The notes beneath the pieces were generated by a model. The model searched no databases and was not told where the DNA came from. It saw only the letters and a list, made by a program, of their open reading frames with translations. The translations under genes and the position numbers were made by a program. 64,000 nucleotides of DNA from Barthelona sp. PCE (lineage: Eukaryota). The first letter of the stretch is position 1. The number at the start of each line of letters is the position of its first letter. Below, in pieces: positions 9,182 to 63,790 of this stretch. The DNA is taken from positions 1,364,001 through 1,428,000 of the forward strand of contig JAUFOR010000003.1 of NCBI GenBank assembly GCA_040285745.1, in the 5' to 3' direction.

Positions 9182-9393
9182 ATGTCACGCGCTAAGGTCA
9201 CTAAAAGTGTAGCTCCCTCATCTGCATCCAACGTTGTCGCTGCTGATGACGCTCCCGGGTTTCACGTGTATGATCCATTTTTTTTTTAATGCATAATCTA
9301 ACGTTAAGTTCACCCAGGCACTCAATGTTCTTCGCCCTTTTCCTGATCATCATTGTTATCTTTTTGCACATTATGGGTAAGTTGCGCTCATAA
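9182..9393 (+). CDS. SEC61B: Sec61 beta subunit, 56 aa, two exons join(9182..9267,9309..9393); absent from ORF track
   Basis: Spliced product MSRAKVTKSVAPSSASNVVAADDAPGFHVSPRHSMFFALFLIIIVIFLHIMGKLRS* matches the Sec61-beta pattern DD.PG..V.P-TM-LHI.GK. Confidence 0.9.
9268..9308 (+). other. Spliceosomal intron, 41 nt, phase 2 (Sec61-beta)
   Basis: GTATGA...TCTAACGTTAAG; removal restores the Sec61-beta frame. Confidence 0.9.
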
Positions 9394-9440
9394 AATAGTT
9401 TACATAGAAATATGCGTAGAATCTTGTAGATAATTATCAT

Positions 9441-10189
9441 TTACAATAAACCCAATAGGATATAACCCACAATTGCTATCACAGTAATTGTTAAAACAAG
9501 TGTCATTCTGAAATTCCTCCAGAACATGATTTTTTTCAGTGTAGCTGCATTTCTATCAACTCCTTGACTTTCAACTCTCAAATTCTCTGTCTCATCAACA
9601 ACAGAATGAAGATTATGTAAGTTTTTGTTAAGTTTGTTAACATTTTGGGTCATTACGTCTGTAGTAACAGCAATTTGCGCTTTTGTACGTGAAAGAACAT
9701 CAACATCTTCAGAAGAAGAAAATTTGGAAAAAAGTTGTTCACACATTACCTTTGTCGGACGAGTTAATGAACCCTCCATTGAATTGGCAATGTCAGCTGC
9801 AAACTTATCATTGAATGAAGTCTGGAACTCACGGAAAAGATTTTGAATAACCCTGACAGGTGCATTAGGTTCAAATACAGCAATATAAATACAAGAATGG
9901 TCAGACTGGCAGCAAACTGTTCCTGCGTCGTCTTCTAATGTGAGTTTAGGAGTTGTTGAAGGATCTAAACGGTCTAAAATGGATTCAACAAGTTGAGTCA
10001 GTGAATTGCGTTGGTTACGAGGTAAATCGTTTGTGTGTAAGCACAGTTGCGCCTTAATGTTAGTAACATTTATGTATAAAGGATGTACAACACGAAAAAA
10101 AAATTGATCGCTATGTACATGTTTATGCAAAATACTTTATCGGGGTTATGCCTTGCGACACCCAGCAATCTTAAAAAAGGTAAGCTCAT
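9441..10189 (-). CDS. VAMP7: Longin R-SNARE VAMP7-like, 221 aa, complement(join(9441..10052,10136..10189))
   Basis: Exon 1 MSLPFLRLLGVARHNPDK joins AQLCLHT..., giving a longin-like N-terminus; SNARE motif VMTQNV...ETENL, MFWRN and a C-terminal TM helix. Confidence 0.8.
10053..10135 (-). other. Spliceosomal intron, 83 nt, phase 0 (VAMP7)
   Basis: Minus strand GTATTT...ACTAACATTAAG; same branch point spacing as the other introns; internal hairpin. Confidence 0.8.
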
Positions 10190-10353
10190 ATGCAAAGTAC
10201 AATTGAGAAGGATAGAATTGCTAAAACAAAAACTTGCTTCACTTTTCCGAAAATATAGACCACATTCAAACTCCACCGCCACCTTTTACCCTCATATGTG
10301 ATCCAATAAAGTGTTTAAACCTTTTTCATCCTTTTTCATATTGTTCAAACGTC

Positions 10354-10962
10354 ATGGGGCATCATCATCACAAGTCTGGATTCTGGAACTATATGATCCT
10401 GATCCACGAATATGGTACTGTTGTCTCCTTCTTTTTGTTGTTTATTTTTACTTTCCTGAAGCGCAGTAGAAAAATTAGCACAAGTTTACACTGTTGGATG
10501 ACGAATATATTCATGACAACCGCATTAATATGTTCTTCTTTACCAGTTTTTCGAACAATTAAACACAATCGATTTTTGTGGATGGTTTTTAAATTTAAGC
10601 ATTTACATGCTATAGTTGGCTGGATCGTCATGATAACCAACATCTACTTCTTTAGAAATGGATATGTAGCTCATAAACCAAAAGACCGTTTACTTAAACC
10701 CAAAAATGTGTTGAGGACTCACAAATATCTCGGATGGTTTTTCTTAGTGCTATGGTATTACGGTATATGGACTGGAGTCTACAACGCATTTGGAGTTGAT
10801 CATGATTGGTGGGTTCCCATCTTTTGGTGGACAATAGGGTTAACTGTTTTGTTTGCCATTATCACCGAAATATCTGTTTGGAGGAAACGTGTGCAAAGGG
10901 AGCAGTTGAGGCTAACAACCAACCCTCTCTTATCTACTGAAGATAGTGAGTCAGTAAATTAG
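10354..10962 (+). CDS. Cytochrome b561/ferric reductase-like membrane protein
   Basis: Likely start 10354 (MGHHHHK); about five hydrophobic helices with His at helix starts (IHEYG, LHCWM, LHAIVGW, THKYLGW), the di-heme b561 pattern. Confidence 0.65.
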   Translation: MGHHHHKSGFWNYMILIHEYGTVVSFFLLFIFTFLKRSRKISTSLHCWMTNIFMTTALICSSLPVFRTIKHNRFLWMVFKFKHLHAIVGWIVMITNIYFFRNGYVAHKPKDRLLKPKNVLRTHKYLGWFFLVLWYYGIWTGVYNAFGVDHDWWVPIFWWTIGLTVLFAIITEISVWRKRVQREQLRLTTNPLLSTEDSESVN

Positions 10963-10988
10963 AAAAATATCTATTTATTTGTTGCTAT

Positions 10989-13900: not shown

Positions 13901-14540
13901 AACCACCAACACACCAATGAAAATGTTGTACATTAATAAAGCCGAAATCAAATAATAGTGTTAAAATAAACATATAATGGGTTCTCAGGTGAGGTGAAAA
14001 GAACTGTTTAGGGACAGGTTCCTCTGGGCCAGAAGAATATCCACTTAAAAATGTAAAAACCATGGTCAGAACGCACATGAAATTGGAAATCTTTATCCAG
14101 TTAGAACAGTTATTGCTAAGAGGAACGTAAACATTCAGGATATATATCTGCATAGCAACAGTAGTAAAGCTCAAAATTACACTGAATGGGGATTTGGACC
14201 ATACTGATCCTAACAGGACATTAAAGCTTGTGTAATATATGTACATTGCAAGCTGAAAAATAAAACATATAACCATGGCTGCTATGAATAGCTTTAACAT
14301 AAATCCATCAACTGCATAAGCAAAAATGAACAAAATAAAAGAAATGACCCACAAAATCAACTGTAAAAGGGTTCTATCTTCATTATCATGGTCAATGGAT
14401 ATTGCAAAAAACCTCTTTATCAGTTCCGTGATGTAATAAAAAAACATTTCAGCGTACTGAAAGCCAAACATCCTTTCGTCCATAAAGCCGTCGGTAAAGT
14501 AACTGTACCAAATACGATAAAGTATTACCCTGATGATCAT
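10989..14540 (-). CDS. PCNX: Pecanex-like multipass membrane protein
   Basis: Many TM helices; C-terminal VKGIWES..EI..NNTESERYSIQSN..IL.NI..IGYP matches Pecanex_C; GTACQDTE motif. Confidence 0.8.
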   Translation of the reverse strand: MIIRVILYRIWYSYFTDGFMDERMFGFQYAEMFFYYITELIKRFFAISIDHDNEDRTLLQLILWVISFILFIFAYAVDGFMLKLFIAAMVICFIFQLAMYIYYTSFNVLLGSVWSKSPFSVILSFTTVAMQIYILNVYVPLSNNCSNWIKISNFMCVLTMVFTFLSGYSSGPEEPVPKQFFSPHLRTHYMFILTLLFDFGFINVQHFHWCVGGFFLLHFFGILPPLHIWILYFVEQFNIYCLGQGMIAGWVSVFSIVAYVTIPSYVVYTVSPVDVTLYVIAGCFMACYRVLIPLNLRFIDRKRLLTKRFLIIFFYFVGVTAIVSLYSSFNSSIRNYTNTLTVVFCLVLYILQNSQKIHVLDLIYIGEFGTNSFPKWENTVYYLKRFLSFVLLPLFIIVHIGDSITTIENYIEKTFSFDLETHSIIVGVLLMILVMRSFYLAFTLPENFSYLLVFSFLMYKYDLRAFTSLTSCNPLILFHVAHIIYLKYKSLYEKTKFMFINAPSAYISPLLLLPSHFLRYIHLIISVIFDTNYYCAFMISPLYRSGTIRPRYYFNSNEKSFICSVSNTNNFVTAVKQRENIKGLSKALVHAQNSGFFGFILPGDMYVVADSVIIIREVYFDGFIVDIRMLETSGTACQDTELSLIQNAHNDFPDFEMPFAIFTLIGVWSPLTFVPYNARLYYRHRNVTSNNILLSIFSEDTLKEFLSMLFHANNVAWRKLSKDTEQFEAIVPQIMDRVIPDVWDMCDQALKLVGNFPAKERPPEEFFDALDRLVLECCLAINTLTKNDNHFMIEYNSDCVSDLPSDWVHSVLTSVLGVESISRVNCEEWYSNAREYMVLLMCNIVHWFVICRHIITFGLPQSVFTSLKSAVMQTMEETPVLTLKDFFSVKEEKKVVEKKKEDVEKRSSGNGFIDEADVALDMFYNENVPQEEAQVEPSNEQIIAPVLSRIDLIPFIYDNVITLGLSEQTLNSAVNEMLNEDTPLSRMAKEVREGALELYRLQQCVQDPIPISRFGDMNQDILKEMHRFTMYNSLNQVVEKYILYSNFGNDYFDKISKAAYDPAFILNSDVNDKNMLSQLEVLLDKDLVRNGSQVYLKTRHNEMHFFNITAPERSHAMITKLSSWVVKGIWESAYREIYCGNNTESERYSIQSNTEILTNISVTIAPMIGYPEAITTRLLASNE

Positions 14541-14792: not shown

Positions 14793-17700
14793 TTAGGCAA
14801 TTGTTCTAAGGTAATATGGGGTTTTTTCAAAGTATGAGCGCTTCAGAGACGTTGCTAAAGTCAAAAATAACAATGCAACTATAAAAGCTGTGAAGATTAC
14901 CAAAAAGAAAAATGTTCCATTCAGCAATACCTCTTTCACTTCCTTGGGCACGATCCACACCGTGTCCCTGGAGAACTTTCTAATACTACAAGATATTTTT
15001 GTTGCTGTGCCAAACATGGGTATGCTCTGTTTTGCGTTTTCACACACTTCAGCTGGAATAGCAACGTTTTTCGCAGCATCGCTGTTGGGGTCATCATTGT
15101 TTATGTATTCAGCATTTCCAAATTCCAAAGCACATGCGAGATCTCGGAGAGCATCTTTCTCATTGGGATTGTGGTCAACGCGTAGACAACTGTTAGCATA
15201 GTAGTTAGACATGAGCCATGATTTGACACGCATTTCTGCCCGATGATCAGCTTTTCTTATGAAATCAAATATATCCGTACCCATTTCAAGAAACAAAAAT
15301 GGCTTGTCAAGACGTGAACTACAATAAAAATGATCAATTGTGTAGTTACTGGTTGCTAATGGCATCCTGGCTCGTTGTTCGCTGAAAGTAAGATTGATAG
15401 GTGGTCCGAATTGGAAAACAAATACTTCAAATGACTTTTGAAGAGCTTTGTAAAAACTTCCACTTACACTTCCTATTTTTGAACCTAATTTGAGTTTTTG
15501 TTGGTCATTTTTATGTGATACTACAAAGAGCGTTGAGTTAACACCTCTTGCAATGAATGAACTTAGTGAAGTTACGTCTACTTTGTAGTAAAGTATCCTT
15601 CCTGGTTTTGTAATTTGTTCTGAATGAACAATATTTTCACCGGTAACAAAATGGTATTCAAATACAATGCGTATCATTGAGTCAATATGTTGTGCCTCTA
15701 AAAACTTGTTGATGGAAATTGTATCTACCTCTATCACAATGTGCAGTTCACTGTTCATACTAACATTATAAACTTTGTAATCTCCTCCGTTTCGTTTATC
15801 AATAACTCTGGTTTCCATGACATCATCTGTTCCCATTTGCCTAATATCAAATTCTACTTCAACAGGATATTCATCAGTGTAAATATTTATGGCAATCAAC
15901 TCATGCTCACCTCTAATTATTTTGACTGGAAGTGCGTAATTCTGTGAATTGGTCATAGTGTTGATCATGTGACTTCCCTCAGTGCTATTCCAAAGTTGTT
16001 CCTCTATTACATCATTAGGGTTTTTCAGATACTGATACCTTACATAACATGGAAGACCATTTTTACCAACAGTCACTCTAATATCGAAATTAAATTCTGC
16101 AGTTCCTTTGTTGTACCAATGTTCTTTAATGAAATAAGCTTTAATATTATGTGATTTTGAAAATTCCTGACTTTTAATTCGCAATATTTCATTTTTAGAG
16201 CTTATTTCAAGGATCTCCTGTGTGTAATCAATGTAATACATGTAAAGTTGAAGACAAGTTGTGCTGACAGAGAAGGTTAAATCAAATTCTGGATTGAAAT
16301 TTTGAGGTAAACTAAATTTAAACCTCTTATAATTAAAATTACTATGGAACGTAGCAGTACCTTCACCATAATCGGATCCCTCTAAACCACTGAGGTGTTC
16401 ACGTGATGTGTTAACTAAAATATGATAGAAAACGACATCATTTCGACTAATACTATTATCTAATGTGACATAAAGGTGCCTGGCACCCTGTTTCATGTTG
16501 TAATACACACATGATCGTTTTCCTAGCACTTTACGAATACTTCTTTTTTCACACATTGAGCGCAAATTCTCATCATTATATGGAACAACAAGCGGCGAAT
16601 AGTGAGCTACAACGCGGCCGCCACCAACGGTTGCACAGAACTTGAGCATATGATCTGGAACAACATTTTCAGGAATTGGTATACGAACATAACTCATATT
16701 ACCGCTTAACTCAAACACTGAGCTGACAGTGCGGCGAATGAGAAGATCCTTCTCGGTGAATATATCAGGCTTCCGAGTAATCATTTCAACCGAGGAACTC
16801 ATCTCGATAGTGCTCACTGAAAGTTCAAATGCACACTCATTTGCATTACAATCTTCTAGAATAACCCATACTGCATTTCCTTCTTCCAAACAATACTCAG
16901 ATCTTTCATATTTCCCAGAGATTGGAACAGTGAATTTTTCAAACGAATCAATGTCTCTGTTACTCTTAAGAACCATGAACCCAACATTGAAATTTCCACG
17001 AATGGACTGAACGGTGATCCTGGTGTAACTTGTGATGTGAGTTTTTTCAACTGTGTGTGTATAGTACTCAGTGAACTGAGGTTTCAATTGACCTAATACA
17101 GGTCCTTGAAGTGGTTTAAGAATAATAGTATGATACACTTGAATTGAAACGTCGATTGGTTCCACTTGTGTTGATTTCGGTTCAATATAAACTCGTAACG
17201 AATCACGATCATTGATACCCAAAACAAATTTGTGCAACGTATCAAGTTTTGTCCCATACTTACGAACACATGCATCAAAATTCTGTCTTTCGCCACTGTT
17301 TAACACATATACTATTGAAATATCACTACAAAACCCAATTGGAATATCCACTCGAATCAGTATAACTCTGAATTTATCTTTAAATAAATACTCCACCAAA
17401 CCATAACTAGGGAACCGGATATGCATCTTAACGTTGCTCAATGTACGGTCACTACGAGATATTATTTGCTGACTAAATGGTGTTGGTATGTGTGTTATTG
17501 AAAGATACTCCGGTTTGTTCATATGTATTCCGTATACCATGAAATGCAGATTAATTTGTTCGATGTGGCCCCTGAGAGTGTTCCCATACTCCTGCAATAC
17601 TCTTGGTGTGCTAGCAATTGAAAAAGATGTGTTCTTCAGAACTAAATCATCGTTAAAGAATGCAAATTTATCGTTTGCTGAGAACTTCACGTTAACTAAT

Positions 17701-20700
17701 GACTTTGATATGGCAGAATCCTCTATGGGATGAATCTTACGAATGGTGTAAGTTACACGCGAATATTCAAAGTAAGGAATCTGCATATAAAACAAACAAT
17801 GTTCCGAAGGTCGGTCGACGCTGTTTGAATAATCAAGAAGAGTGTTTTCTACGTTGCAGTGTAAAGGACTTTCCAAAGTACATATTTGGAATGACGAATA
17901 TGAAGTGTATAATTGTAAAGTAGCAAAAAACGTAACTCCAACATCTGATTTCACATACAAATATAAATCTTCGTACATATATCCAGTGTATGAAGGTGAT
18001 TTCGACTCGACACGTTTAATCATTGGTACATCAATATCACTATGTGACAATGTGGGATTGGCCAATAGAAGTACTAAATTGGGAGTTTCATAATCACGTG
18101 GTACATGTCTAAGCTTTAGAGTGATGTGCATTACATCTTTTGATGTAAGATAATGTGCAGGTGTAATTAATCTGTACAGAGAATCTCTTTTGAACTGCAT
18201 ATAAACAGATGACTCAACACTGACAGCTTTTGTTTTGTTGAGTTTTAACTGACGGTTTTCAATATCTTGGAATGAAAATACCCATAATTTATGTCCTGAA
18301 AACAGTCGATCTGTGTGATCCAAGAAGTATTCCTTCAAACCACCAAAGAACAACATCTCCTCCTTACAAAGAGGCTCCAATGACTTGGCACAAAAAGGTA
18401 TCGCTTTGAAATAAAATCTACTTGATGTGTTGAGATAAAACCATTGTGGTTCTGAAAAATCAACAGATGTAATGTTACTAGTTACCTGTAAAACAACTTC
18501 CATGTCTTCTGCTGGTATATCTATGTTGTTTGGTATGTCATCCAAGGAATTCAAAGTTATCATATGCTCTACCTCTTGCAAATCTACATTAATAGTGGTG
18601 TTAAATTCGCTGACAACATTCACAATGAAACATTGGCCACCGTAAACACTTGAAGCTGTGGATGTACGTATAGGTTCGTTTCGGTCGAGATCATTCACAT
18701 ATACTGGTGTTGTAACTGGATTAATCTCATCAAAAATTGATAGTTCTTCAGGCAGTCTCAACATATTCTGAATTTTTTCTGGAGATCGTTCGATGACAGT
18801 AAACAGAGAACTGTTAACAGAACAAGGAGCCACTCTTATGTAATATGGTATTGTGTTCTCAGATGAAACATGAATACTCACGATCAATGGGTCAGTGAAA
18901 TTCCTACGAACCATGAACTGCCGACCCAGTGTGTGTGGCCCAATTTCAAGAGGTCCAGACACAAGAGATGGATCTTTAAAGACGATTGGTTCAATATTAC
19001 GCGCATTAATAGTAATTTCAAGATCTTCACAATCAACAAGCTGCAAAAGCACACCTTCAGAAGTGTCACTGTCGATATTATATATATAAAATGCCATTTC
19101 TGACTTGTGAGTGGCATATATATCAATAATTCTAAAATCAACATCCTGCCGATTTTCACAAGGCCAACTCTTCGGTTCATAAACAAGATGACATATATCA
19201 TCATCTATATCATCTGTATTCCATTCCAAATTAATTATTAGGCTTGTCTCCATATCTAGAGAAGATACAAAAACATTGCTCTCTTCAGTTAAATACGTTT
19301 CTTCACCAGCATTTAGAGGAGGTTTTTTCCTTGCTACAATAGTGAATTTGATTTTCGAATCAACATCAAATTTTGGAATAAGTGTTATGTAAACTGGTCT
19401 ACTGGGGTTAATCAAGCATTTGATATCAATCTTTTCTGTACCACCAAATCCTAAACTACTATCTCTCTCTTCATACTCAATTTTTGGTTCAGTTTCAATC
19501 TCAAAATATGTAAACTCCATAAAATGAAATTCTTCATCATAGAACTTAAAATACTGCGGCTCATTCCCAGCAACATAATATTCAACGGACTCGTAAAGTC
19601 GCAATACATTAAATTCTTTTCGATGAACTAACACTGATACATTGAATGTACTGTGGACTTTGCGTTTATATCGAATAGCACCATATATTGTTGTGTTACC
19701 TAACACTCTATACACAGCATTATCATTGATATCAATCAAAATCTCTGATAAATGACTGCCCACATCAAAATGAATGACTTTTTGAGCAACAATATCCCAC
19801 ATTGTTGATGAATCAGTGACACCATCATCAAAACCCAATGGATCAAATGATGAATATGAGAATTTAACAACAATATCCTCTTCATAAACTGTTTCATTGC
19901 GTTCAAATCGAAAACGTAAAATATCTGAGGTTGAATCTATATCAGAAATATTAATCATAAAAACAGATACGTGGTTTTCCACTGTGGCAAGGGATATAAC
20001 AGTTAAGGCTTCAGTCCATTCATTAAAAGTATCAACGATGATATTTTGATCAACAATAGGGTTCTCAATAAGTAAATCCATATAGAATGTGTATGCTGTG
20101 CCTATTTTAACTGTTTCATACTCAATATAGAGATACTCTTTACCGACTAATTGATTATGATAGATAAAAAATGATAAATACTCGTCAACTTCATTAAATA
20201 TCTTCCAGTCAATATTAAGATCAAACTTAACAGCAACGTTAAACTGGCCAGCTACTTTTAGTTTAAAGAAAAGTAGAGAATTATCCGTTTCAGATAAACT
20301 TGCTTTGAATACATGTTTTTTAACATCACAACTTCTACAGTGATACTCTTTACCAAGCTCAACACTCCTTTCAACAAGTGTCTGGTATGATAACTTGAAC
20401 ATTGCCGATCTTTTAAACAAATCTGGTGATCTCTGCAAAAAAACTGTAATGTACACAAATCCACTTGATGACGTGTAATCTTGCTCAAAAAACGTATCGT
20501 TAAGTGGGAATGAAAGAGAAGAGCTGGCATGGTGACAACTGAGATCTCCAGCCAACGGCACATCACTCAAAAACAATACAGGATACAATTCTGAACTAGT
20601 TGTCAGTACCTCCAGTGTTACTCTTACATTAGGTGATTTGCTGGACACCTTACCATAGTAGTGGCGATATGTGTTCTCGAATACCATACCTGAAACAATA

Positions 20701-23339
20701 GAATATTCTTCTAAATGGTGTTTATCATCACTTCCTGAACTAATAATTTTTTGAAGGGTAATTGTAACTGCAAAAGAATTCAAATTATGAATCAAAATCG
20801 TTGTATCAAGTGAAAAATCACAACCATAAACAATATAACTTGTATTAAATCTCGAAATTACATCAGGTGTGTAACACAGTGAATGAGGTCTTTTATAGAA
20901 TGTACGAATTTCAATATTAACATCTTTGTCATCTTCGAATGTTCTACGAATGTTGTTTGTCCACACAAGTGTTGGATCAAGAGAAAAATCAAGCAAAAAG
21001 TATCGACTTCGGAAGTCATCCATATGCTGCTCGTTGTCATCAACGTATAATGTCACTAACTTAAGCGCATTCGGCTCGAGGGCAATGGTTGGGTACTGAA
21101 CGCTTCCATGTGTTAATGTAGAATTTAATGATTGGTGATGTTGATACAACTTTTTTAATTCGAAAGTTAATTTAAAATCTACTTGATGGGCAGCTGTTAC
21201 ATCGGCTGTGTCATAATAAACTGTGAGAATAGGCGATTTTAAATCACATTTGAGTGATGTGAGAGTGCATGTCTTTCGATCTGACTCAGCAAAACATGTA
21301 TCAATATTTGGGAGCGACATAGCAAGTGTTCCTGAGGTGAGGGTATTTGATGATATAGTAATCTTTACCCAAAGATCTTCAAAATGAACCGTTTCATTAA
21401 TATGCAACTCAAAGTGTTTGACAAAATTATTCTCAGTGTTTAGCATACCTCTTAACGGTTGATCTTCATCAACATTAATCACATCACGGTTGTTCTTCAA
21501 AAAAATTGCCTTAAAACTAATGATAGATGGTTTACGGATTCGTACAAACATGTAAGCATCAGTAGCATATTGCAATAATGAAGATTGATTTGTAAGCGGA
21601 GATTGTTTCAAATCGTCAAATTTCACTTTTAGTGCATCTGAACTAGATTCAATATAACTTGAAAACTCTTTTATACCTTGCCTGAAACACAAATTTTGAT
21701 GACCAAGAACGTTACCAAAATTAAGTACTATATCATTATCAGGGATAGCTTCATCCCGATTGTGCTGAATATAAAGAACTGAACTGGAATTGATAACAGC
21801 CGTAGGGATTTTAAAAATAACAAAATCATCAACTTGAAAACTGGAAACATAAGCGCTTATCTCCATATCTGTTGTTAAAATAGGTCTTCTCCTTCGGACA
21901 ACAAGACTTATACCCATTTCTGTATTGTATATAAGATCCTTATTTTCAACTTTTAGATGTACATGTAAGTATTGCTGCATACATTTTGGATTAACAATGA
22001 AAGAATCACGAAAAAAAGTTTTAATGGATGACTCAATCCCCATATCCATGTCTTGATTACTACTTGTCCATACTTTAATGGAAAAAATACTTCGACTAAG
22101 TTGTTTCTCACCCTCAAAATATAATGAAATATCATACATAGCTTCATTGAGTTCCTGAAGATCTTGAGGATTAAATTCCATACCAAAATCAAGTGTTATC
22201 ATTGCCTTTTGCAACGGAAATAATACCATACCACTGTATACCGTTTCACTATCAACAGGTATTTTAATAATAGGTGGGCGATGAATTGATCTGACTGCCT
22301 CAAACGTTGGTAAATCATCATTGAAGATGACCAGAATGTACCTTTCAGTAAACTCATAACGACACACCTTTTCTGGCTGACATATTCGCGGAATTGAGAA
22401 ATCTTTGTTAATTACAATTTTTGAACTGCTGCCATACAAAATTAATTTCTCAGAACCGTCAAATATTACTTTCAAAATTGCAGAATTGACCTGATAATCA
22501 AGCACCTTTCTTAAATCTAATAAACAAGCTCCATACTTCCAATTGACTGGGGTAAAAACTTCTTTAGGCTCAAGAACATGTGTCATTTTTGATATTGGAT
22601 GTATAGTTACGTTCAACGAGTATTCAACTGCAGGGGAAATAAGCACTTTGAAGAACGTACTTTTTGAAGGACTGCGTTTAATAATTGGAAAAATATTCTC
22701 TTCACAATTTCTCATTGTTTCACCACGTTCAACGTCAGGAAATACACCGTATGTAAAATAAATTGTACATTTTGTGGTGTAAAAGGGTGATTTAAAAAAA
22801 TCTAAATGAACAACTCCAAAATATTCATCACTATCAAGACTAGGCATTGGTAATTCAAAATATATAGGTTCTAATGATTGCTCAAATGGTATGACAATAT
22901 CCTCTCCCAAAGATAACTGATGTACTTCATGATGAACATAAGTTATTAATGTAAAATTTGCTGAACAAGCTAAATGGGTTAGTATTCTATTCTGTGCAAT
23001 GATGAAGAAATGATCAAAGTTTGGCTCGAGTGGAAGTTCGAGAATCTTGTTGGACTCTAATGCAGTATATTCACGTATAATGGTGTCTGATCGGAAACTA
23101 TCACCCTTGATTAATGGTTTTGAGTAATCCGTCGTTAAAAAGATGTCTAGAGGACAGGTTGTCGTATCTAGATGCAATACGCCAGTTACTAGCTCATGAT
23201 CTTCAACAGGTGGAAGTTTCACAACAATATCTGCAAATCTTGTTCCAAAATTGAGTTCCAGGGATTCACCGAACTCAATTTCCCGAATTGAAAGCCCTAC
23301 AACGCAACAAAAAAAGAATAGTGCAAAGAAAAGGTTCAT
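14793..23339 (-). CDS. Giant type-I membrane/surface protein, 2848 aa
   Basis: N-terminal signal peptide, beta-strand-rich ectodomain, single C-terminal TM helix and short tail. Confidence 0.8.
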   Translation of the reverse strand: MNLFFALFFFCCVVGLSIREIEFGESLELNFGTRFADIVVKLPPVEDHELVTGVLHLDTTTCPLDIFLTTDYSKPLIKGDSFRSDTIIREYTALESNKILELPLEPNFDHFFIIAQNRILTHLACSANFTLITYVHHEVHQLSLGEDIVIPFEQSLEPIYFELPMPSLDSDEYFGVVHLDFFKSPFYTTKCTIYFTYGVFPDVERGETMRNCEENIFPIIKRSPSKSTFFKVLISPAVEYSLNVTIHPISKMTHVLEPKEVFTPVNWKYGACLLDLRKVLDYQVNSAILKVIFDGSEKLILYGSSSKIVINKDFSIPRICQPEKVCRYEFTERYILVIFNDDLPTFEAVRSIHRPPIIKIPVDSETVYSGMVLFPLQKAMITLDFGMEFNPQDLQELNEAMYDISLYFEGEKQLSRSIFSIKVWTSSNQDMDMGIESSIKTFFRDSFIVNPKCMQQYLHVHLKVENKDLIYNTEMGISLVVRRRRPILTTDMEISAYVSSFQVDDFVIFKIPTAVINSSSVLYIQHNRDEAIPDNDIVLNFGNVLGHQNLCFRQGIKEFSSYIESSSDALKVKFDDLKQSPLTNQSSLLQYATDAYMFVRIRKPSIISFKAIFLKNNRDVINVDEDQPLRGMLNTENNFVKHFELHINETVHFEDLWVKITISSNTLTSGTLAMSLPNIDTCFAESDRKTCTLTSLKCDLKSPILTVYYDTADVTAAHQVDFKLTFELKKLYQHHQSLNSTLTHGSVQYPTIALEPNALKLVTLYVDDNEQHMDDFRSRYFLLDFSLDPTLVWTNNIRRTFEDDKDVNIEIRTFYKRPHSLCYTPDVISRFNTSYIVYGCDFSLDTTILIHNLNSFAVTITLQKIISSGSDDKHHLEEYSIVSGMVFENTYRHYYGKVSSKSPNVRVTLEVLTTSSELYPVLFLSDVPLAGDLSCHHASSSLSFPLNDTFFEQDYTSSSGFVYITVFLQRSPDLFKRSAMFKLSYQTLVERSVELGKEYHCRSCDVKKHVFKASLSETDNSLLFFKLKVAGQFNVAVKFDLNIDWKIFNEVDEYLSFFIYHNQLVGKEYLYIEYETVKIGTAYTFYMDLLIENPIVDQNIIVDTFNEWTEALTVISLATVENHVSVFMINISDIDSTSDILRFRFERNETVYEEDIVVKFSYSSFDPLGFDDGVTDSSTMWDIVAQKVIHFDVGSHLSEILIDINDNAVYRVLGNTTIYGAIRYKRKVHSTFNVSVLVHRKEFNVLRLYESVEYYVAGNEPQYFKFYDEEFHFMEFTYFEIETEPKIEYEERDSSLGFGGTEKIDIKCLINPSRPVYITLIPKFDVDSKIKFTIVARKKPPLNAGEETYLTEESNVFVSSLDMETSLIINLEWNTDDIDDDICHLVYEPKSWPCENRQDVDFRIIDIYATHKSEMAFYIYNIDSDTSEGVLLQLVDCEDLEITINARNIEPIVFKDPSLVSGPLEIGPHTLGRQFMVRRNFTDPLIVSIHVSSENTIPYYIRVAPCSVNSSLFTVIERSPEKIQNMLRLPEELSIFDEINPVTTPVYVNDLDRNEPIRTSTASSVYGGQCFIVNVVSEFNTTINVDLQEVEHMITLNSLDDIPNNIDIPAEDMEVVLQVTSNITSVDFSEPQWFYLNTSSRFYFKAIPFCAKSLEPLCKEEMLFFGGLKEYFLDHTDRLFSGHKLWVFSFQDIENRQLKLNKTKAVSVESSVYMQFKRDSLYRLITPAHYLTSKDVMHITLKLRHVPRDYETPNLVLLLANPTLSHSDIDVPMIKRVESKSPSYTGYMYEDLYLYVKSDVGVTFFATLQLYTSYSSFQICTLESPLHCNVENTLLDYSNSVDRPSEHCLFYMQIPYFEYSRVTYTIRKIHPIEDSAISKSLVNVKFSANDKFAFFNDDLVLKNTSFSIASTPRVLQEYGNTLRGHIEQINLHFMVYGIHMNKPEYLSITHIPTPFSQQIISRSDRTLSNVKMHIRFPSYGLVEYLFKDKFRVILIRVDIPIGFCSDISIVYVLNSGERQNFDACVRKYGTKLDTLHKFVLGINDRDSLRVYIEPKSTQVEPIDVSIQVYHTIILKPLQGPVLGQLKPQFTEYYTHTVEKTHITSYTRITVQSIRGNFNVGFMVLKSNRDIDSFEKFTVPISGKYERSEYCLEEGNAVWVILEDCNANECAFELSVSTIEMSSSVEMITRKPDIFTEKDLLIRRTVSSVFELSGNMSYVRIPIPENVVPDHMLKFCATVGGGRVVAHYSPLVVPYNDENLRSMCEKRSIRKVLGKRSCVYYNMKQGARHLYVTLDNSISRNDVVFYHILVNTSREHLSGLEGSDYGEGTATFHSNFNYKRFKFSLPQNFNPEFDLTFSVSTTCLQLYMYYIDYTQEILEISSKNEILRIKSQEFSKSHNIKAYFIKEHWYNKGTAEFNFDIRVTVGKNGLPCYVRYQYLKNPNDVIEEQLWNSTEGSHMINTMTNSQNYALPVKIIRGEHELIAINIYTDEYPVEVEFDIRQMGTDDVMETRVIDKRNGGDYKVYNVSMNSELHIVIEVDTISINKFLEAQHIDSMIRIVFEYHFVTGENIVHSEQITKPGRILYYKVDVTSLSSFIARGVNSTLFVVSHKNDQQKLKLGSKIGSVSGSFYKALQKSFEVFVFQFGPPINLTFSEQRARMPLATSNYTIDHFYCSSRLDKPFLFLEMGTDIFDFIRKADHRAEMRVKSWLMSNYYANSCLRVDHNPNEKDALRDLACALEFGNAEYINNDDPNSDAAKNVAIPAEVCENAKQSIPMFGTATKISCSIRKFSRDTVWIVPKEVKEVLLNGTFFFLVIFTAFIVALLFLTLATSLKRSYFEKTPYYLRTIA

Positions 23340-33455: not shown

Positions 33456-33546
33456 GTATGTTTGGCTGATGCTTCACTGTGACGTAACTTATAGATACGT
33501 CAGATTGTGCTGAGTTTATAATCCAAAAAGGACATCTAACACTTAG
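33456..33546 (+). other. 5'-UTR spliceosomal intron, 91 nt (IST1)
   Basis: GTATGT...TCTAACACTTAG, followed by 7 nt and then the ATG; the last 12 nt are identical to those of the phosphatase intron. Confidence 0.82.
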
Positions 33547-33553
33547 TATAAAA

Positions 33554-34312: not shown

Positions 34313-34393
34313 GACCTGATTGTATGTACATATGTTAATAAATCACTGATACGTAGAATTATATATACTGATTTTACAATAGCATGTTTAATA

Positions 34394-52398: not shown

Positions 52399-52404
52399 TA
52401 AAGA

Positions 52405-53713: not shown

Positions 53714-55837
53714 ATGCCTCGTTTTCACACTCTTGATCACTTGTTCGAGCTTTTTTCAGATGATCTAGCCGCTGTAGGATCTACCATCGGTATTGAACTC
53801 AACAAGAAACACTTTCAGCTAGTATGTTTGCGATTGAGTGGTTAAATGAGTTTATAACCACTGTTTCGAAGCTTGCCTCACACCTAGTGCGCTCGTAAGA
53901 ACGAAGGAGATGTAACTGTCCTTGTGTTCCAATTTGCCAAACAGCTCAAAATGAAACCAATGGACATTGCCGCTTTGTTCATTGAGAAACTTACAGAGTA
54001 CGTTGCTGAGCACGAAGAATCGTTCATCTCACACGCTACTCAAGCCAGAGCTTATGTCAATATCCATCTGAAGCGATCCATGGTATTTAAGCATTTTATT
54101 GGGCTTGTTAACGATAACAGCAGTGAATATGGTTATATTGACACTAAGAAGGGTCAAAAAGTTGTCATTGAACACACATCATCCAACCCTAACGCACCTC
54201 TTCATATCGGTAATCTCAGAAATTCTCTCCTTGGCGCACACCTTGCTAAGCTTCTTGAGGCCATTGGCTATGATGTCGATGAGTACTTCTTCGTTAATGA
54301 TATGGGGGCTCAGATTGGTCTGACCGTTTTTGCATACTCGAAGGTTTTCCATCTCGTCAAGCCGACCATCAAGATCGATCAGTGGGTCGGTATCATCTAC
54401 GCCATGTCCAACACTTTTGTCGAGCTCCAAAAGGATAAAGTGGATCTCAACGCCCTTGTTGATCTTAACGAAGGTATCATTAACGAACTTGTTGAAGCCA
54501 GTGAGAACAAGGAGCACACTGCTGAGTATATTGATATCTGGCAGGACCTCCTCGTCCGTTTCCCTGAGTTAGGTGGCGTCATGCTCAACGAGCTTAAAGA
54601 TGTTGGCTCAATCAAGCTTGAAGGTGCCCAGATGAATTTGAAGTACGAACAGAACGACCCCGAGATCGTTCCTCTGTATAGGCAGATGGTAAACTATGTG
54701 TTGAGCGCAGTTCAAAAAACACTGGATACTTATGGCATTCAGCACAACGCTTGGCATTATGAGTCAGAGCTCTTGTGGGATGGTTCAGTCTCCCAGGTGA
54801 ATGACATCGTCCTTGACAGCCCCTACTTCGTTCCAGCAACACTGTGCAACAAAGAGGGTGTTCCCGAAGGTGGTTACATTGATCTGAACAAATACATTCA
54901 GGACGCCGGTCTAAAGGTCGGTAAAGGTGGCTACATGAAGAACTATCCCCGTCTCTATGTGTTCCGCCCTGATGGATCCACACTTTACTCCTTCAGAGAC
55001 GCAGTTTACTCTCTCAAGAAGATTGAAAATTCTGATTTGGTGTTGAACATCATCTGCTCCGAGCAGAACTTGGCTCAAGAGAAGGTGTCACTTGCTCTCC
55101 AAATGCTCACAGAGGAAGGTAACAAGCTCTACCATTTCTCATATGACCTGGTTAAGCTCACCACAGGTAAGATGTCTGGTCGTCGTGGCCTCTATCTCCT
55201 TGCTGATAAACTGTACGAAACCCTTCAGGATGAGGTTCAGCAGATCATTGACAGCCGTAACGTTTCTCTTTCTCAAGAAGAGAGGACGAGCATCGCACAC
55301 GAGGTTGCCACTGCTACTATGAAGTACTCTCTCTTGAACCAGAAGCCTCTCAGTGTCATTAACTTCGATGTTGCAAAGGCCTCCGATCCATCCAGCGCTG
55401 GTTCTGGTGTTTCAGTCTTGTACAACATCACCCGTATCACATCAATTCTTCGTAAACTGGATGACATGATCAATGATGGTAAGGTTGAGTCCCCTATTGA
55501 TAACATTGAAGATATTGACTTCACAGCGTTGGACAATGATAAGGAATGGCAGATCTTCCTCAAGTACGTTGTTGGTCTTTCAGCTATTATTCAAGAAGCC
55601 GCTGACGTTGATATCCCCAAGCACCCCAAGCTTCCTAATTATGGTACTCATGTCGTACCTGGTGCTCTTGCTTCTTTCGCTCAGGATTTCTCTTCATATT
55701 ATAAGGCTGTTCGTATTTTGGTTCAAGATGGTGATCACAATGTATTGAGTGCTCGTATTCAACTTATTCGTGTGTTCCAACAGGCTATGAATAATCTTCT
55801 TGCTTTGATTCCCATCAAGCCTCTGGAGAAGATGTAG
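53714..55837 (+). CDS. argS: Arginyl-tRNA synthetase, 685 aa, join(53714..53821,53888..55837)
   Basis: EHTSSNPNAPLHIGNLRN, DGSTLY..RD, KMSGRRG, DALR-type domain, C-terminal PLEKM; exon 1 plus EGDVT..FQFAK completes the N-terminal domain. Confidence 0.93.
53822..53887 (+). other. Spliceosomal intron, 66 nt, phase 0 (ArgRS)
   Basis: GTATGT...CCTCACACCTAG; contains an in-frame TAA; removal joins the ATG exon in frame. Confidence 0.88.
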
Positions 55838-55902
55838 ATCAACTTTTTCAATTTAATAAACAAAAAATGAATTTATTTCTTACTTATCACTAATATCTAA
55901 AA

Positions 55903-58618: not shown

Positions 58619-58782
58619 TACAGCAACAGGAATCAGGTTATATATTTTTAAACACAAAAGTGTCAATTTTTTACTATATTTCTCTCATAAAGCTCTATAT
58701 TATCGTGAATGTGCTGATCATTACCTTTAATTTTCCAATTGAGTAAAAACAAGTTCTCCCAAACTATTTTGCAAAGAATGTA

Positions 58783-59205
58783 TTAAATGCGAAGAATATT
58801 CAATAAATATGAAATCAAAACCCTAAAAACGTTCGAAAATGCAACAGATATATACAAAAACGAAATAACCACCAGCGAAAATACAAAACCTATCACCTGC
58901 AAAACAGTTGACGTAATAACATCATATACCGGTTTCAGTTCGACAATTGCTCCATAAAATCGATGCTTAACTCCCACCAAAACCTCTTGAAAAGGCCGAA
59001 TTGAAATATCTGCAGTATACATCTCAGAATCAAACATATACCTGCAGTACAGCTCCAAACGCAGATCAACACTATTAGAAACAGAGTTTAACTCATACTT
59101 AGATAAAAAACATATTTCCCCATTATAAGAACATTGTTGTAAATATGACCCAAAAGTCAAGGCTAAAAGTGCAAAAAAGATTGCCCAATCCCTAATAAAA
59201 AGCAT
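58783..59205 (-). CDS. Small hypothetical membrane protein, 140 aa
   Basis: Signal-like N-terminus, C-terminal TM helix, pyrimidine-rich leader. Confidence 0.55.
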   Translation of the reverse strand: MLFIRDWAIFFALLALTFGSYLQQCSYNGEICFLSKYELNSVSNSVDLRLELYCRYMFDSEMYTADISIRPFQEVLVGVKHRFYGAIVELKPVYDVITSTVLQVIGFVFSLVVISFLYISVAFSNVFRVLISYLLNILRI

Positions 59206-59333
59206 AAGAGTCTTAAAACAAAAAGCAAAAAGTTGATCTAATTTTTTGCCTCCGCTTATAGAAACGTATTATGTATCACAGTGGATAGTATTTACAAAGA
59301 AAAAGTCATGCTGATGATAATAAATCTCAAAAT

Positions 59334-62225
59334 TTAAGATTGCACATCAAAAGGGAGTTGCACTTGCTCAATAACACTTTGGATCGCTTCAATCCACCTT
59401 GCCTTCTGTTCCAATCCGGCTGCTGCCATGACAAACGGTTGTGGCTTCCTTTGCATCGTTAGTACATTGGGGTCTCTTGTACTGTACTCAAAAAACCACA
59501 AACAAAATGTATGTTCTTTATCAACAACAATATCACTACAAAACTCATCTATACAGCAAGTAGCCAACGATATGGTGCCCTTCGGTGAGAAATCGTGTTT
59601 GTTCTCAAAATAATGTAAGCAACCGTCCTTTAACGTGAACCAACGCTTACGCCAATTCTTCAAGAAGTTCATGGAACTGCTGAGTTTCTGCAGATACCCC
59701 GAGAGCTGACTATTGCTGAAATTATGAATCGCGTGATACTGCACACTCTCCGACTCTACAGATGGACTAGGAGACCTTGAGCTCACAACCTTACTCAATG
59801 ATATAGAGCTCGTTCGCAACCTGGTTCCTGAACTGGATGAGCTCAGTTTTTTCCGATTCAAAATTCGCATTTCCTCGTATATTTCCAAAATTTTAAACTC
59901 AAAGAACTCAAGTTTATCAATCGTACTAAACACGTACACGTCATCGTCCAACGTCAGCTCAAGCGTTGTTTTATCGCATGTAAACGACGTCAGCGTTAAC
60001 TCATATCGCTTTGAAGGCTCAAACGTGTCAATGTTCTCAAACATATACACTGAGCCATCGAAACTCAGAAGAATGTACCTGTCCTTCACAATGAACTTCT
60101 TCTTATTCTTGACGACAGCATCACATACAACACTAATAAATGTGCAAAAGCTGCTTGTCTTGAAATTGCGATCGTTCACCCCTAATCTTCGATGGACACG
60201 ACCAACAATCGGGCGGAGTACGGCGTCTGAACGCAATCCACTGACTGCTCTTACATCATCCAACTCGTTAGTGAGATTTTCAATTTCAATGTCCTTGTTA
60301 AACAAACTATTAGCCAGGGACTCTCTCTTGTGCAGGGATTCTGTAACTGTTTCCTTGTATAGTGTGATCTGGTCCATAAGCTCTTCATTCATCCTCTTGA
60401 GAGATCCGATCGTAACATCCTTACCGAGAATAATATGATTCTTGTGCTGTACTTCTTGCTCAAGGCGGCGCATCTCGCTGACTTCCACAACCTGAAGCGC
60501 GTTGCCTGGGTTTTGCAGCGTCTCTGGTGAAAATATGTCCTTTGCCATCATATCATAGGTACTTGGTGTCAGAAACGATGATGGTTCCTGGTTTGACTTT
60601 GTTGGCGTCACTGGAATGGCCTCACATAATATCTGCTCCACTCGAGTTATATACGCATCAAGACATTGTGCAACAACGGCCTGTGTCTTGGAATCGCTGT
60701 GATATTCCAACTGCAACGCCTGTGTTCTGTTTTCACTCTCCAAAAGATCAACTTCACAGTGTAGCTCCTTCACCTCTTGTTGAAGCATCACGTTCTTTTC
60801 GCGCGTCTCACTTAATTGAAAGCTCAAATCTGCCATCATACGTTCTTGGGATTCAAGGCGCTCCGTGTATATATTAATGTGTTCTGAAAGCTGAACATCG
60901 AATAAGTTGGCTTGCTCAGCGTCCGATTCCGTAATGCTCAGTTCACTTCCACGACGAACAGTCTTCCGAGTCCCAGTGCTACCTATACTTTCTGGATCAA
61001 AGTCCTCTTCGTATTTGCTACGAATATAATCAATGAGCTTTGCGTTTTTGGATTCTAACTCAGAAACTTCACATTTTAGTTTTCGTATAATAGCCTTTAG
61101 CTGCTCTGTCGACAGCTCCTTGTTAATCTTTGCTGTGGTCACAACATTCTTCGCTCGCATAGCAAACCTTAATGTTGAAATGGTTTCATCTAAATTACCT
61201 GGATGCTCGGACGCTGTCACAATTACCAATAACTTACCTAAAGTTAATGAATTCTTCAATAAAAAAGTTAGTTTAGACTCTCGAAAGGAAACATAATCTT
61301 GTCGTGAACTCAACTGATTAATCACTCTTCCTAAAGCCGACAGCGATTGATTGATTTTGATTGCTTCATTAAATGTGTTACCAGTTGCACCTGTCTTCTT
61401 TACGCACTCTGAACCCGCGAGATCCACCAAGTGAAGTGTGCTGTTAGTCTGACCATCCTCATGATTGCATGTGCATTTGAGGGTGAAGACAGAATGAGAT
61501 CGAGATGAAGTCTCGTTCATATTTGTCGATGAGACAGAGCGGGCCCGCGCACCCTGCCTAATCAGCATCATAACATCATTGATGCTACGCACACTGTGTA
61601 ATGACAGACCATCAACATAGATCCCTCGTCTGGGATCCTCTCGAATACGAAGGTTTTTGTTACCTGCACGGGATGTCTGGAGCAAATCGATGATACGCTC
61701 GCAGTATATCTCGTGAAAAGACGCAGTAAGCTTCCATTCGTTGTATAAATCATCATCAATAAATTCAAATATTTGTTCAAGAGCACGTGGGATAACTCCA
61801 CGCTCGTCACCACACTCCACGTCCATATCTGGGCCGAACAGCGTGTGTGTTTTACCACTACCCGTCTGTCCAAAAGCAAAAATTGTTCCGTGATAACCAG
61901 ATAACACGAAATCAACAATCTGTTTTGGGTAATCGTCGAAAAACTGTGTTTGGCTCGTATTAGGCCCATATATTTTGTCCAATGTGGCTTCAAAAGAAGA
62001 TTGATATCCTGATCGATGAATAGATACTTTCTGATCTAGATACTCGACGCTGAGCTCTTTTAGAGCCTCCCTGCCCTCAAACATTCGCTGTTCTTCAGCA
62101 ATGTAAGGTCTGAACCGACTGACTACAAAAACATTCCCATCTGAAACTGACTGTGCTCTTCTCCTACTTTGTGAAATCTCCACTGGCTCCTGTACAGACA
62201 AACTCGCCCTTGGGGGCTTTGTCAT
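59334..62225 (-). CDS. Kinesin (kinesin-1-like motor) with coiled coil and C-terminal PH domain
   Basis: GQTGSGKTHT, NETSSRSH, DLAGSE, ETISTLRFA; PH motif SGYLQK...NWRKRWFTLKDGCLHYF...PKGTI...WIEAIQ; likely start 62225. Confidence 0.9.
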   Translation of the reverse strand: MTKPPRASLSVQEPVEISQSRRRAQSVSDGNVFVVSRFRPYIAEEQRMFEGREALKELSVEYLDQKVSIHRSGYQSSFEATLDKIYGPNTSQTQFFDDYPKQIVDFVLSGYHGTIFAFGQTGSGKTHTLFGPDMDVECGDERGVIPRALEQIFEFIDDDLYNEWKLTASFHEIYCERIIDLLQTSRAGNKNLRIREDPRRGIYVDGLSLHSVRSINDVMMLIRQGARARSVSSTNMNETSSRSHSVFTLKCTCNHEDGQTNSTLHLVDLAGSECVKKTGATGNTFNEAIKINQSLSALGRVINQLSSRQDYVSFRESKLTFLLKNSLTLGKLLVIVTASEHPGNLDETISTLRFAMRAKNVVTTAKINKELSTEQLKAIIRKLKCEVSELESKNAKLIDYIRSKYEEDFDPESIGSTGTRKTVRRGSELSITESDAEQANLFDVQLSEHINIYTERLESQERMMADLSFQLSETREKNVMLQQEVKELHCEVDLLESENRTQALQLEYHSDSKTQAVVAQCLDAYITRVEQILCEAIPVTPTKSNQEPSSFLTPSTYDMMAKDIFSPETLQNPGNALQVVEVSEMRRLEQEVQHKNHIILGKDVTIGSLKRMNEELMDQITLYKETVTESLHKRESLANSLFNKDIEIENLTNELDDVRAVSGLRSDAVLRPIVGRVHRRLGVNDRNFKTSSFCTFISVVCDAVVKNKKKFIVKDRYILLSFDGSVYMFENIDTFEPSKRYELTLTSFTCDKTTLELTLDDDVYVFSTIDKLEFFEFKILEIYEEMRILNRKKLSSSSSGTRLRTSSISLSKVVSSRSPSPSVESESVQYHAIHNFSNSQLSGYLQKLSSSMNFLKNWRKRWFTLKDGCLHYFENKHDFSPKGTISLATCCIDEFCSDIVVDKEHTFCLWFFEYSTRDPNVLTMQRKPQPFVMAAAGLEQKARWIEAIQSVIEQVQLPFDVQS

Positions 62226-62740
62226 TGGAGAATGAGATTGAAAAAGTAAAAACAAAAAATTGTTGCAGTGCAAGCATTGTGTGATGCGAATGTACATTTT
62301 AGACCATAATCGTTGGATGATAATAGCTCTATTTTGAAAAGAGAAGCACCTGCGTTTTTTTTTTTGTAATTTTTTGATATATTTGTGAATATACTTTAAT
62401 AATAACGCATAAAATGCAATAAAAACTTCTGGTCTCTCTTTTAATAAAAAGAACATTGCAGAACCAAAATATGTTGTTGTGAAATCTTTACACAATCATG
62501 AAAGAGGTTGTGTATGTATTTAAAAGATATTCACTGGCTTAACTACCGATAAATGTGCAATTTGTGGAAATTCTATATTATTACAATCCATATCATTCAT
62601 CTGTGAAGTATTTGTCTCCTTTTCTGAATTTAAACATACTTTAAATCTGTTAAGCAGCTTTCAACGCTTCCCAACCAGGTAACCAATGTTTTCTTTTTTT
62701 CACTCCGTTTCTGCAATTTTTGCATATCTAATCGTGTAAG

Positions 62741-63790
62741 ATGAATGATATTAATCAAGCTATCGAACAGCTTAGACAAGGGAAATTCCTCAGGGAAGTT
62801 CAGATGAAGAGCATCATAACAAGAGTATGTAGTGTAGTTTTTCCATCATTTAACATAGCAACTGAGCATATATGTTCAACTAAACGTCATTTTAAGCACG
62901 GACTGTATTGCACGTTGAATATAAGGATTTTTCTATCTTATTCATTATTCTCTAACACTTAGTGTATTGAACTGTTCTCAAAAGAACCCAATATTGTCAT
63001 GCTGAAGCCGCCTGTCACAATTGTAGGCGATATTCACGGACAGTTACATGATCTTATTGAAATTTTCCGCATTGCAGGAGATCTACCTTACACAAGCTAC
63101 CTTTTTCTGGGTGATTTCGTTGATAGGGGCTACTACAGCGTTGAATGTGCTAGTTTATTGTTTGCTTTAAAAGTTAAGTATCCCAACCGTATCACACTAT
63201 TAAGAGGTAATCACGAGTCAAGACAAACAACACAGCTGTATGGATTCCACGAGGAGTGTGTCCGAAAGTACGGTAATTCCAATGTATGGCGATCATTCAT
63301 CCAGGCATTTGATTGTCTGCCAATCAGCGCTACAGTAGACTCAATATTTGCCCTCCATGGTGGTTTGAGCCCAGTAATCGATACACTTGATCAAATCAAG
63401 AACTTGGAGAGGAAGCAAGAAGTGCCACATGATGGAGCTCTTTGTGATCTTCTTTGGAGTGATCCTGATCCACGCCAGGGTTTCTTCCTCTCTCCCAGAG
63501 GCGCAGGATTCATGTGGGGTTCAGGATGTAGCGATGGTTTCCTCCATAGGAATGGACTCTCTCTTATTGCACGTGCTCACCAGGTTACAATGGACGGATA
63601 TCAATATATGCACAACAATAAGGTCGTCACCATCTTCTCTGCACCGAATTATTGTTACAAGGTTGATAATTTAGCTGCTCTTATGGAGGTTGACAACCAT
63701 TGCGATCATTCTTTCCAAGTTTTCGAACCTGCTCCTCGTAGAGGACAACCACACGTAACACGCTCATCACCTGAATACTTTGTCAGCTAA
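62741..63790 (+). CDS. PP2A-family Ser/Thr phosphatase catalytic subunit, 303 aa, join(62741..62824,62963..63790)
   Basis: GDIHG, GDFVDRG, RGNHE, SAPNYCY; tail [12 protein letters not shown] resembles PP2A; the two adjacent ORFs join through an intron. Confidence 0.92.
62825..62962 (+). other. Spliceosomal intron, 138 nt, phase 0 (phosphatase)
   Basis: GTATGT...TCTAACACTTAG; removal gives ...[25 protein letters not shown]. Confidence 0.92.

Follow-up and report, generated by a model that had tools for sequence, protein, structure and literature searches.

Introns of Trichomonas vaginalis, Giardia lamblia and the yeast Yarrowia lipolytica lack a 3′ pyrimidine tract according to Irimia and Roy (PMC2483917), who describe their branch motif as anchored to the 3′ AG, at a distance of 4 nucleotides (nt; ACAC) in T. 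vaginalis as well as G. lamblia, and of 2 nt in Yarrowia, and who regard this anchoring as convergence among intron-poor lineages. For Giardia, the consensus reported by Hudson et al. (PMC6679479) is VTATGTT at the 5′ and VCTRACACRCAG at the 3′ splice site, while that of Spironucleus vortens is given as GTAAGTY and RCTAACAARHTAG, with one additional nucleotide. The same work reports stem-loops within long introns and, for Spironucleus, short introns of 40-43 nt, an intron in the 5′ untranslated region (UTR) of S. vortens Rps15 and a spacer consensus of AARHT, and the ACAC/ACRC spacer is thus specific to certain species rather than to the intron type. T-rich sequence 5′ of the branch in T. vaginalis and, for Carpediemonas, branch-like sequences that adjoin the 3′ end have also been described (PMC1201135), and oxymonad introns are reported to lack such a motif (PMC1501061). 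Here, we analyze five introns with a fused branch motif and 3′ splice site, designated I1 to I5, in a 64,000-nt stretch of DNA from Barthelona sp. PCE (assembly GCA_040285745.1, contig JAUFOR010000003.1, positions 1,364,001 to 1,428,000 of the forward strand; hereafter, the window).

A free-living anaerobe, Barthelona sp. PCE belongs to the metamonad 'BaSk' clade, which is sister to Fornicata, and has a genome of 10.2 Mbp in 8 contigs (N50 1,587,787; 40.3% GC; 5,064 predicted proteins) that the describing paper calls the smallest known of any free-living eukaryote (PMC11316075). No account of how barthelonid or skoliomonad introns are built emerged from our searches, PDF supplements, which might hold intron counts, having been outside their reach; introns come up once in the genome paper, in its methods, and nowhere in the text-readable supplements (PMC11316075).

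Intron architecture

The five introns have GT-AG boundaries and share a donor that begins with GTAT (5/5), extended to GTATGT in three of them and to GTATGA or GTATTT in the other two. For introns of the Giardia/Trichomonas type, the published form of the extended 5′ site is GTATGT / GTAYGT. The branch motif, CTAAC in four introns and CTCAC in I4, occupies positions -11 to -7 in each, and the distance from the pentamer to the terminal AG is 4 nt in all five (Table 1). An earlier interpretation made from the letters of the window (the sequence-only reading) had put forward precisely these 3′ ends and donors, together with a constant 6 nt past the pentamer, and the sequence agrees on every count, the 6 nt being N4 plus AG each time. 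It had also located the introns near gene 5′ ends. Indeed, the four coding introns begin 54-108 nt past the ATG, three of them in phase 0, and the fifth ends shortly ahead of a start codon. Two long open reading frames (ORFs) that it had singled out as uninterrupted, of 8.5 kb and 15.6 kb, are open over their entire length (14793-23339, 8,547 nt; 34394-50023, 15,630 nt). The claimed absence of a polypyrimidine tract holds with a caveat: none fits into the 4 nt between branch motif and AG, yet T-rich runs lie 5′ of the branch motif in three of the five introns (T10 in I1, T9 in I2 and a 25-nt segment with 80% pyrimidine in I5). I4 holds an in-frame TAA, and I5 ends with an in-frame TAG.

Table 1 Coordinates, splice signals and host genes of the five introns (positions refer to the window; I3 is putative; CDS, coding sequence; aa, amino acids)
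Intron	Coordinates	Strand	Length, phase	Donor	3′ end	Host	Host CDS	Intron position
I1	9268-9308	+	41 nt, phase 2	GTATGA	tCTAAC-GTTA-AG	Sec61-beta-like tail-anchored protein, 56 aa	9182-9267 + 9309-9393	86 nt past ATG at 9182
I2	10053-10135	-	83 nt, phase 0	GTATTT	aCTAAC-ATTA-AG	R-SNARE (synaptobrevin domain)	10189-10136 + 10052-9440	54 nt past ATG at 10189
I3 (putative)	33456-33546	+	91 nt	GTATGT (9-mer GTATGTTTG)	tCTAAC-ACTT-AG (13-mer TCTAACACTTAGT)	Ist1-family gene	33554-34312	5′ UTR; intron end 7 nt ahead of ATG
I4	53822-53887	+	66 nt, phase 0	GTATGT (9-mer GTATGTTTG)	cCTCAC-ACCT-AG	arginyl-tRNA synthetase	53714-53821 + 53888-55837	108 nt past ATG at 53714
I5	62825-62962	+	138 nt, phase 0	GTATGT	tCTAAC-ACTT-AG	PP2A-family Ser/Thr phosphatase	62741-62824 + 62963-63790	84 nt past ATG at 62741

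Compared with shuffled sequences, two of the four introns longer than 50 nt fold far more stably and two do not. I2 has a stable internal hairpin with a T9 loop and a fold z-score of -3.64 (0/200 shuffles as stable), and the value for its internal part, with the splice signals excluded, is -3.91 (again 0/200). I4 contains a stable internal hairpin of 8 base pairs and folds with a z-score of -2.74 (2/200 shuffles as stable), or -2.95 when its splice signals are excluded (3/200). The shortest intron, I1, is unstructured by the same measure (z +0.33).

Independent placement of the coding introns and position of the motif

Placement of the four coding introns relied on the reading frame, on homology or on deposited proteins and made no use of the motif. 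For three of them the spliced model is identical to a deposited protein: the 221-aa R-SNARE interrupted by I2 (P0122, 'PCE1_001817 [Barthelona sp. PCE]'), the 685-aa arginyl-tRNA synthetase interrupted by I4 (P0002, 'PCE1_001833 [Barthelona sp. PCE]') and the 303-aa phosphatase interrupted by I5 (P0141, KAL0234294.1, 'PCE1_001330 [Barthelona sp. PCE]'). The Pfam domains Synaptobrevin and Metallophos lie in exon 2 of the first and third of these genes, respectively. According to the methods of the genome paper, junctions from RNA sequencing (RNA-seq) were used to train the gene models of the deposit (PMC11316075). The phosphatase is additionally present in the protein collection as an unspliced 263-aa form (P0140) that starts at 62999, the first ATG past I5, and is either a model in which the intron is retained or the product of a second gene call.

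As for I1, its in silico removal restores a predicted Sec61-beta frame. The spliced model is a single open frame of 56 aa with a C-terminal membrane anchor, ending in MFFALFLIIIVIFLHIMGKLRS directly before the stop, and exon 2 alone matches positions 19-41 of the 41 positions of Pfam Sec61_beta with an E-value of 0.0052, a match that falls below the gathering score, as is to be expected of half a domain. An alternative donor at 9266 was rejected, as the resulting frame is not that of Sec61-beta. All in all, the five introns are real or very probably real.

Chance expectations for the motifs were derived from 200 dinucleotide shuffles of the window, with scans covering both strands (128 kb). 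The combined pattern of donor and 3′ motif occurs 9 times as against 2.66 +/- 1.93 in shuffles, where overlapping donors inflate the 9 and at least five occurrences are found in 30/200 shuffles. More telling is where the matches fall. All four CTAAC-N4-AG matches on the two strands are intron ends, which makes this motif a sharp annotation aid for the Barthelona genome. At every other spacing from 0 to 15 nt, CTAAC-Nk-AG has between one and eight matches, none at an intron end; this includes the three matches to CTAAC-N2-AG. The 3′ end of I4 is one of 10 CTCAC-N4-AG matches in the window. Estimated from base composition, the chance of finding a pentamer of the given class at the fixed offset is ~0.002 per intron, and since the four coding introns had been fixed without recourse to the motif, their shared spacing is not a product of chance.

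Outside introns, CTAAC is followed by AG at a spacing of 4 nt in no case, as compared to a mean of ~3.9 matches at other spacings, which weakly suggests avoidance of the signal. The pentamer itself is also rarer than expected over the whole window (69 occurrences on both strands vs 98.6 +/- 10.3 in shuffles). Both observations may reflect avoidance of cryptic branch/3′ signals, although the numbers are small.

Proposed mechanism and alternative explanations

We consider it highly likely that these are U2-type GT-AG spliceosomal introns of the fused-branch type known from Giardia and Trichomonas and, with less assurance, that they are removed by way of a composite branch/3′ signal. Such introns would combine a strong 5′ site, GTATGT, with a strong branch motif, (N)CTAAC and once CTCAC. 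Pairing of U2 with CTAAC would fix the branch, and the AG, lying exactly 4 nt past the pentamer and hence placing the junction 7 nt past the presumed branch adenosine, would enter the catalytic center at a fixed short distance within the composite element. The 3′ AG would not be located via a pyrimidine tract, for which the 4-nt spacer leaves no room. As the four spacer letters vary, distance rather than the ACAC sequence appears to be constrained in Barthelona. What we infer in this scheme is which adenosine serves as the branch, the measuring of distance, any absence of U2AF-like recognition, any simplification of the spliceosome and the splicing of I3.

Several observations weigh against this assignment. 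The basis is five introns from a single 64-kb window, taken at the level of sequence, and the comparison with deposited proteins covers I2, I4 and I5. On its own, neither form of the 3′ motif is enriched in the window: CTAAC-N4-AG is found 4 times vs 5.8 +/- 2.5 in shuffles, and CT[AC]AC-N4-AG 14 times vs 12.6 +/- 3.7. The spacers (GTTA, ATTA, ACTT, ACCT and ACTT) conform to R-Y-Y-W, unlike the ACAC/ACRC of Giardia and Trichomonas, which occurs in none of the five, and one branch motif, CTCAC, departs from the published CTRAC. It is in these two respects that the introns differ; the sequence-only reading, in granting them a consensus of their own, went too far, as GTATGT and the 4-nt gap equal the published Giardia/Trichomonas values. 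Folding does not single out all long introns either, with z-scores for I3 (-0.53; internal part -1.36) and I5 (+0.38; internal part 0.00) being not significant, nor is the path length that remains after folding, 29-36 nt, shorter than in shuffles (96-131/300 as short or shorter).

Among competing explanations, the one that survives best is that the 4-nt spacing is merely the commonest value or a detection effect, other distances or motif-less introns being present genome-wide. We deem this possible, if unlikely. It draws on a sample of five introns that were probably first recognized by their motif, on an ORF-based search that misses introns in UTRs or after very short first exons, and on precedents in relatives: Spironucleus introns with their additional nucleotide (PMC6679479) and motif-less 'Type B' candidates from an RNA-seq re-analysis in Giardia (PMC10711314), the like of which may exist in Barthelona. 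Five ORFs of the window (10354-10962, 23369-24502, 34394-50023, 59334-62456 and 58783-59205) have no deposited match and may hide introns of another type. Against a detection effect, the four coding introns that were confirmed without the motif all have the same spacing, and 17 other ORFs are present as single-exon proteins in the collection, 15 from their first ATG and two from their second (exact look-up of 30 sequences, with 8/10, 7/10 and 3/10 found, the matches being not certainly all from the annotation of the deposit). Moreover, a listing of donors (GTATGT, GTATGA, GTATTT and GTAAGT) combined with a check of upstream frames and of ORFs in gaps revealed no further frame-keeping intron in the window, and the same was true of a relaxed scan (donor GT[AG]NG, branch [CT]T[ACG]A[CT], 4-nt spacer).

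Five candidates were discarded along the way. Splicing would break the frame at 59023-59098 (-) and lead to an immediate stop in a 39-nt GTATGTTTAA...CACAG stretch at 62601-62639 (-). The candidate at 34322-34356 (+) is located past a stop codon, and those at 14413-14457 (-) and 1781-1812 (-) lie within ORFs that are present unspliced in the collection.

The second alternative concerns I3, for which the evidence consists of the motifs themselves. This element lies in a divergent intergenic region of 519 nt, and CTAAC-N4-AG has a chance expectation of ~5.8 per window; I3 might hence be the promoter or leader of the Ist1 gene with motifs that arose by chance. Within I3, upstream of the Ist1 gene, the 7-nt arms TGACGTA and TACGTCA at 33480-33486 / 33496-33502 (+) form a perfect inverted repeat, which could be an intron hairpin or a factor-binding site of a promoter. 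No in-frame ATG lies upstream, and the Ist1 ORF is present in the collection as a single-exon protein (P0133) from the ATG at 33554. Several features speak against a non-intronic origin. The donor 9-mer of I3 (GTATGTTTG) recurs in I4 and its 3′ 13-mer (TCTAACACTTAGT) in I5, the element is in sense orientation and stops 7 nt short of the ATG, and it provides the sole intergenic CTAAC-N4-AG of the window, a full match being expected by chance in the ~9.8 kb of intergenic sequence (both strands) at ~0.02 by rough estimate. A 5′ UTR intron of the same type is known from S. vortens Rps15 (PMC6679479). A promoter or leader with fortuitous motifs thus strikes us as rather improbable, and I3 is likely to be a real intron.

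A third possibility is that the spliceosome simply uses the first AG past the branch, the uniform short distance being a by-product of selection for compact introns. The AG that is used is indeed the first one in 5/5 introns, none of the spacers containing an AG, and a distance-measuring and a first-AG rule are therefore inseparable here. On its own, a first-AG rule predicts variable distances, in contrast to the five identical ones observed, and non-intronic CTAAC-Nk-AG is present at all other values of k. Experiments in T. vaginalis, as cited in PMC1201135, showed that it matters where the motif lies with respect to the 3′ end. We regard a pure first-AG rule as improbable and favor recognition of the AG at a fixed distance within a composite signal.

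Introns of the U12 type, which are removed by the minor spliceosome, have the consensus RTATCCTT at the donor and TCCTTAAC at the branch. It is exceedingly improbable that the introns of the window belong to them: a constrained branch-to-3′-site distance is a U12 trait as well and Giardia small nuclear RNAs (snRNAs) show hybrid U2/U12 features (PMC6679479), but the donors are GTATGT, GTATGA and GTATTT with ATCC in 0/5, the branch is CTAAC or CTCAC rather than the U12 motif, and PMC6679479 judges consensus sequences of this kind to be nearer the U2 type.

Gene content of the window

The window consists of compact eukaryotic DNA, with 23 ATG-initiated ORFs of at least 150 aa on both strands separated by short spacers, and the standard genetic code keeps its ORFs open. 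Exon 2 of the arginyl-tRNA synthetase gene shows 100% identity to the deposited 'hypothetical protein PCE1_001833 [Barthelona sp. PCE]', and two further proteins of the window also match Barthelona sp. PCE deposits. Pfam matches include ATG9, Ist1, Snf7, SARAF, a PH-domain kinesin and a protein kinase. A scan of the window at Rfam gathering thresholds returned 0 matches and hence no snRNA, and ARAGORN found 0 tRNAs.

The largest ORF (34394-50023, minus strand) is a single exon of 15,630 nt for a 5,209-aa HYDIN-like flagellar protein with Ig and ASH domains of the HYDIN/CFAP65 type in Pfam; its exact sequence is absent from the protein collection, and the deposit may split or shorten it. The kinesin ORF (59334-62456, minus strand) begins with ~100 AT-rich, low-complexity residues, and its motor domain starts at residue 114. 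The protein predicted from its first ATG is likewise absent from the collection, and translation probably begins at an ATG further downstream. At 23369-24502 (minus strand), a 377-aa ORF with clear leucine-rich-repeat matches in Pfam lacks an exact match in the protein collection, and a search of that collection for proteins of 207-660 aa at E <= 1e-40 likewise found none. This appears to be a gene that the deposited annotation lacks.

Two smaller ORFs complete this group. The one at 10354-10962 (plus strand; 202 aa) begins with MGHHHH and has many hydrophobic stretches. Searched from three possible starts, it has no exact match and no identical representative in the protein collection, its only relatives being two weak ones, 31% and 26% identical, within proteins of 724 and 621 aa. 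This ORF is a gene that escaped annotation or no gene at all. The other (58783-59205, minus strand; 140 aa), with hydrophobic ends, occupies most of a 715-nt gap between two minus-strand genes and is absent from the protein collection.

Implications for 3′ splice-site choice

A few intron-poor eukaryotes are known to keep their branch-to-AG spacing fixed, a trait without a mechanistic explanation. Giardia and Trichomonas conserve both the spacing and the spacer sequence, over tens of introns only, and the roles of the two are therefore inseparable there. A free-living relative with the same spacing, a variable spacer and probably many more introns would offer a natural dataset on the choice of the AG by distance. 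Such a dataset could also show which splicing factors (U2AF, SF1 and second-step factors) went with the pyrimidine tract, and whether inheritance or repeated evolution within Metamonada accounts for the trait. Yeast can dispense with Slu7 and Prp18 once the branch lies very close to the AG, and an absence of these two factors from Barthelona would be in keeping with a 3′ site fixed by distance.

The window contains five introns per ~26 gene models, or ~0.2 per gene, which, if the window is typical, extrapolates to an order of 1,000 introns across the 5,064 genes. We tentatively propose, at somewhat less than even expectation, that Barthelona carries hundreds of introns (order 1,000), essentially all of the form CTNAC-N4-AG with a degenerate spacer. 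If true, this would be the largest natural set of fused branch/3′ sites in metamonads, and it would imply a spliceosome that reads distance, not the ACAC sequence. The presence of this architecture in a free-living lineage that is sister to Fornicata would further imply that the trait predates the parasitism of Giardia and Trichomonas and may be ancestral to Fornicata plus BaSk (plus Parabasalia), rather than a repeated by-product of parasitic reduction.

Comparison with known intron systems

The likeness to Giardia and Trichomonas, already drawn by the sequence-only reading, is apt, the more so as the host is itself a metamonad, and the introns in question are spliceosomal with a branch motif anchored to the AG. 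Like those of Barthelona, Giardia/Trichomonas introns (ACTAACACACAG; VCTRACACRCAG) have GT-AG boundaries, a 5′ GTATGT, a branch motif of the CTAAC type that precedes the AG by 4 nt without an intervening pyrimidine tract and a 5′-proximal position in intron-poor, compact genomes of Metamonada. Internal hairpins in some long introns may be a further common feature, and T-rich runs 5′ of the branch are shared with T. vaginalis. The base ahead of the pentamer is T in three of the five Barthelona introns vs A or V in Giardia/Trichomonas. Barthelona is free-living, unlike these two, and no trans-splicing was seen in the window. Provided that the window is typical, its intron density would greatly exceed that of Giardia, for which 11 introns are cited (PMC6679479), or of T. 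vaginalis, where 39 were initially found (PMC1201135).

Among Spironucleus species, S. vortens and S. salmonicida share with Barthelona the fused branch and 3′ site, 5′-proximal and mostly phase 0 introns, a length class of 40-43 nt (compare I1, 41 nt), a terminal TAG, A/T-rich spacer letters and, considering the putative I3, the occurrence of a 5′ UTR intron. They differ in their usual 5-nt rather than 4-nt spacer and in the GTAAGT donor of S. vortens. Spironucleus species read TAA and TAG as sense codons.

More distant parallels exist as well. Yarrowia lipolytica resembles Barthelona in being intron-poor and in its strong CTAAC, fixed short anchoring and missing pyrimidine tract (PMC2483917), yet it has a 2-nt spacer and, as a budding yeast, belongs to an unrelated lineage. 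Anaeramoeba pumila, another free-living metamonad, has undergone massive intron loss and retains 22 introns with a 5′ GTTAGT and a strong branch motif, CT(G/c)AC, which includes the CTCAC variant; unlike in Barthelona, its reported 3′ conservation is limited to the AG, with no fixed branch-to-AG distance stated (bioRxiv 10.64898/2026.04.11.717937).

Judged by their sequence architecture, the Barthelona introns are thus of the known Giardia/Trichomonas type, departing only in the species-specific ACAC consensus. The occurrence of this type in Barthelona is unsurprising given its relatives, and gives a useful lead to those who specialize in intron evolution.

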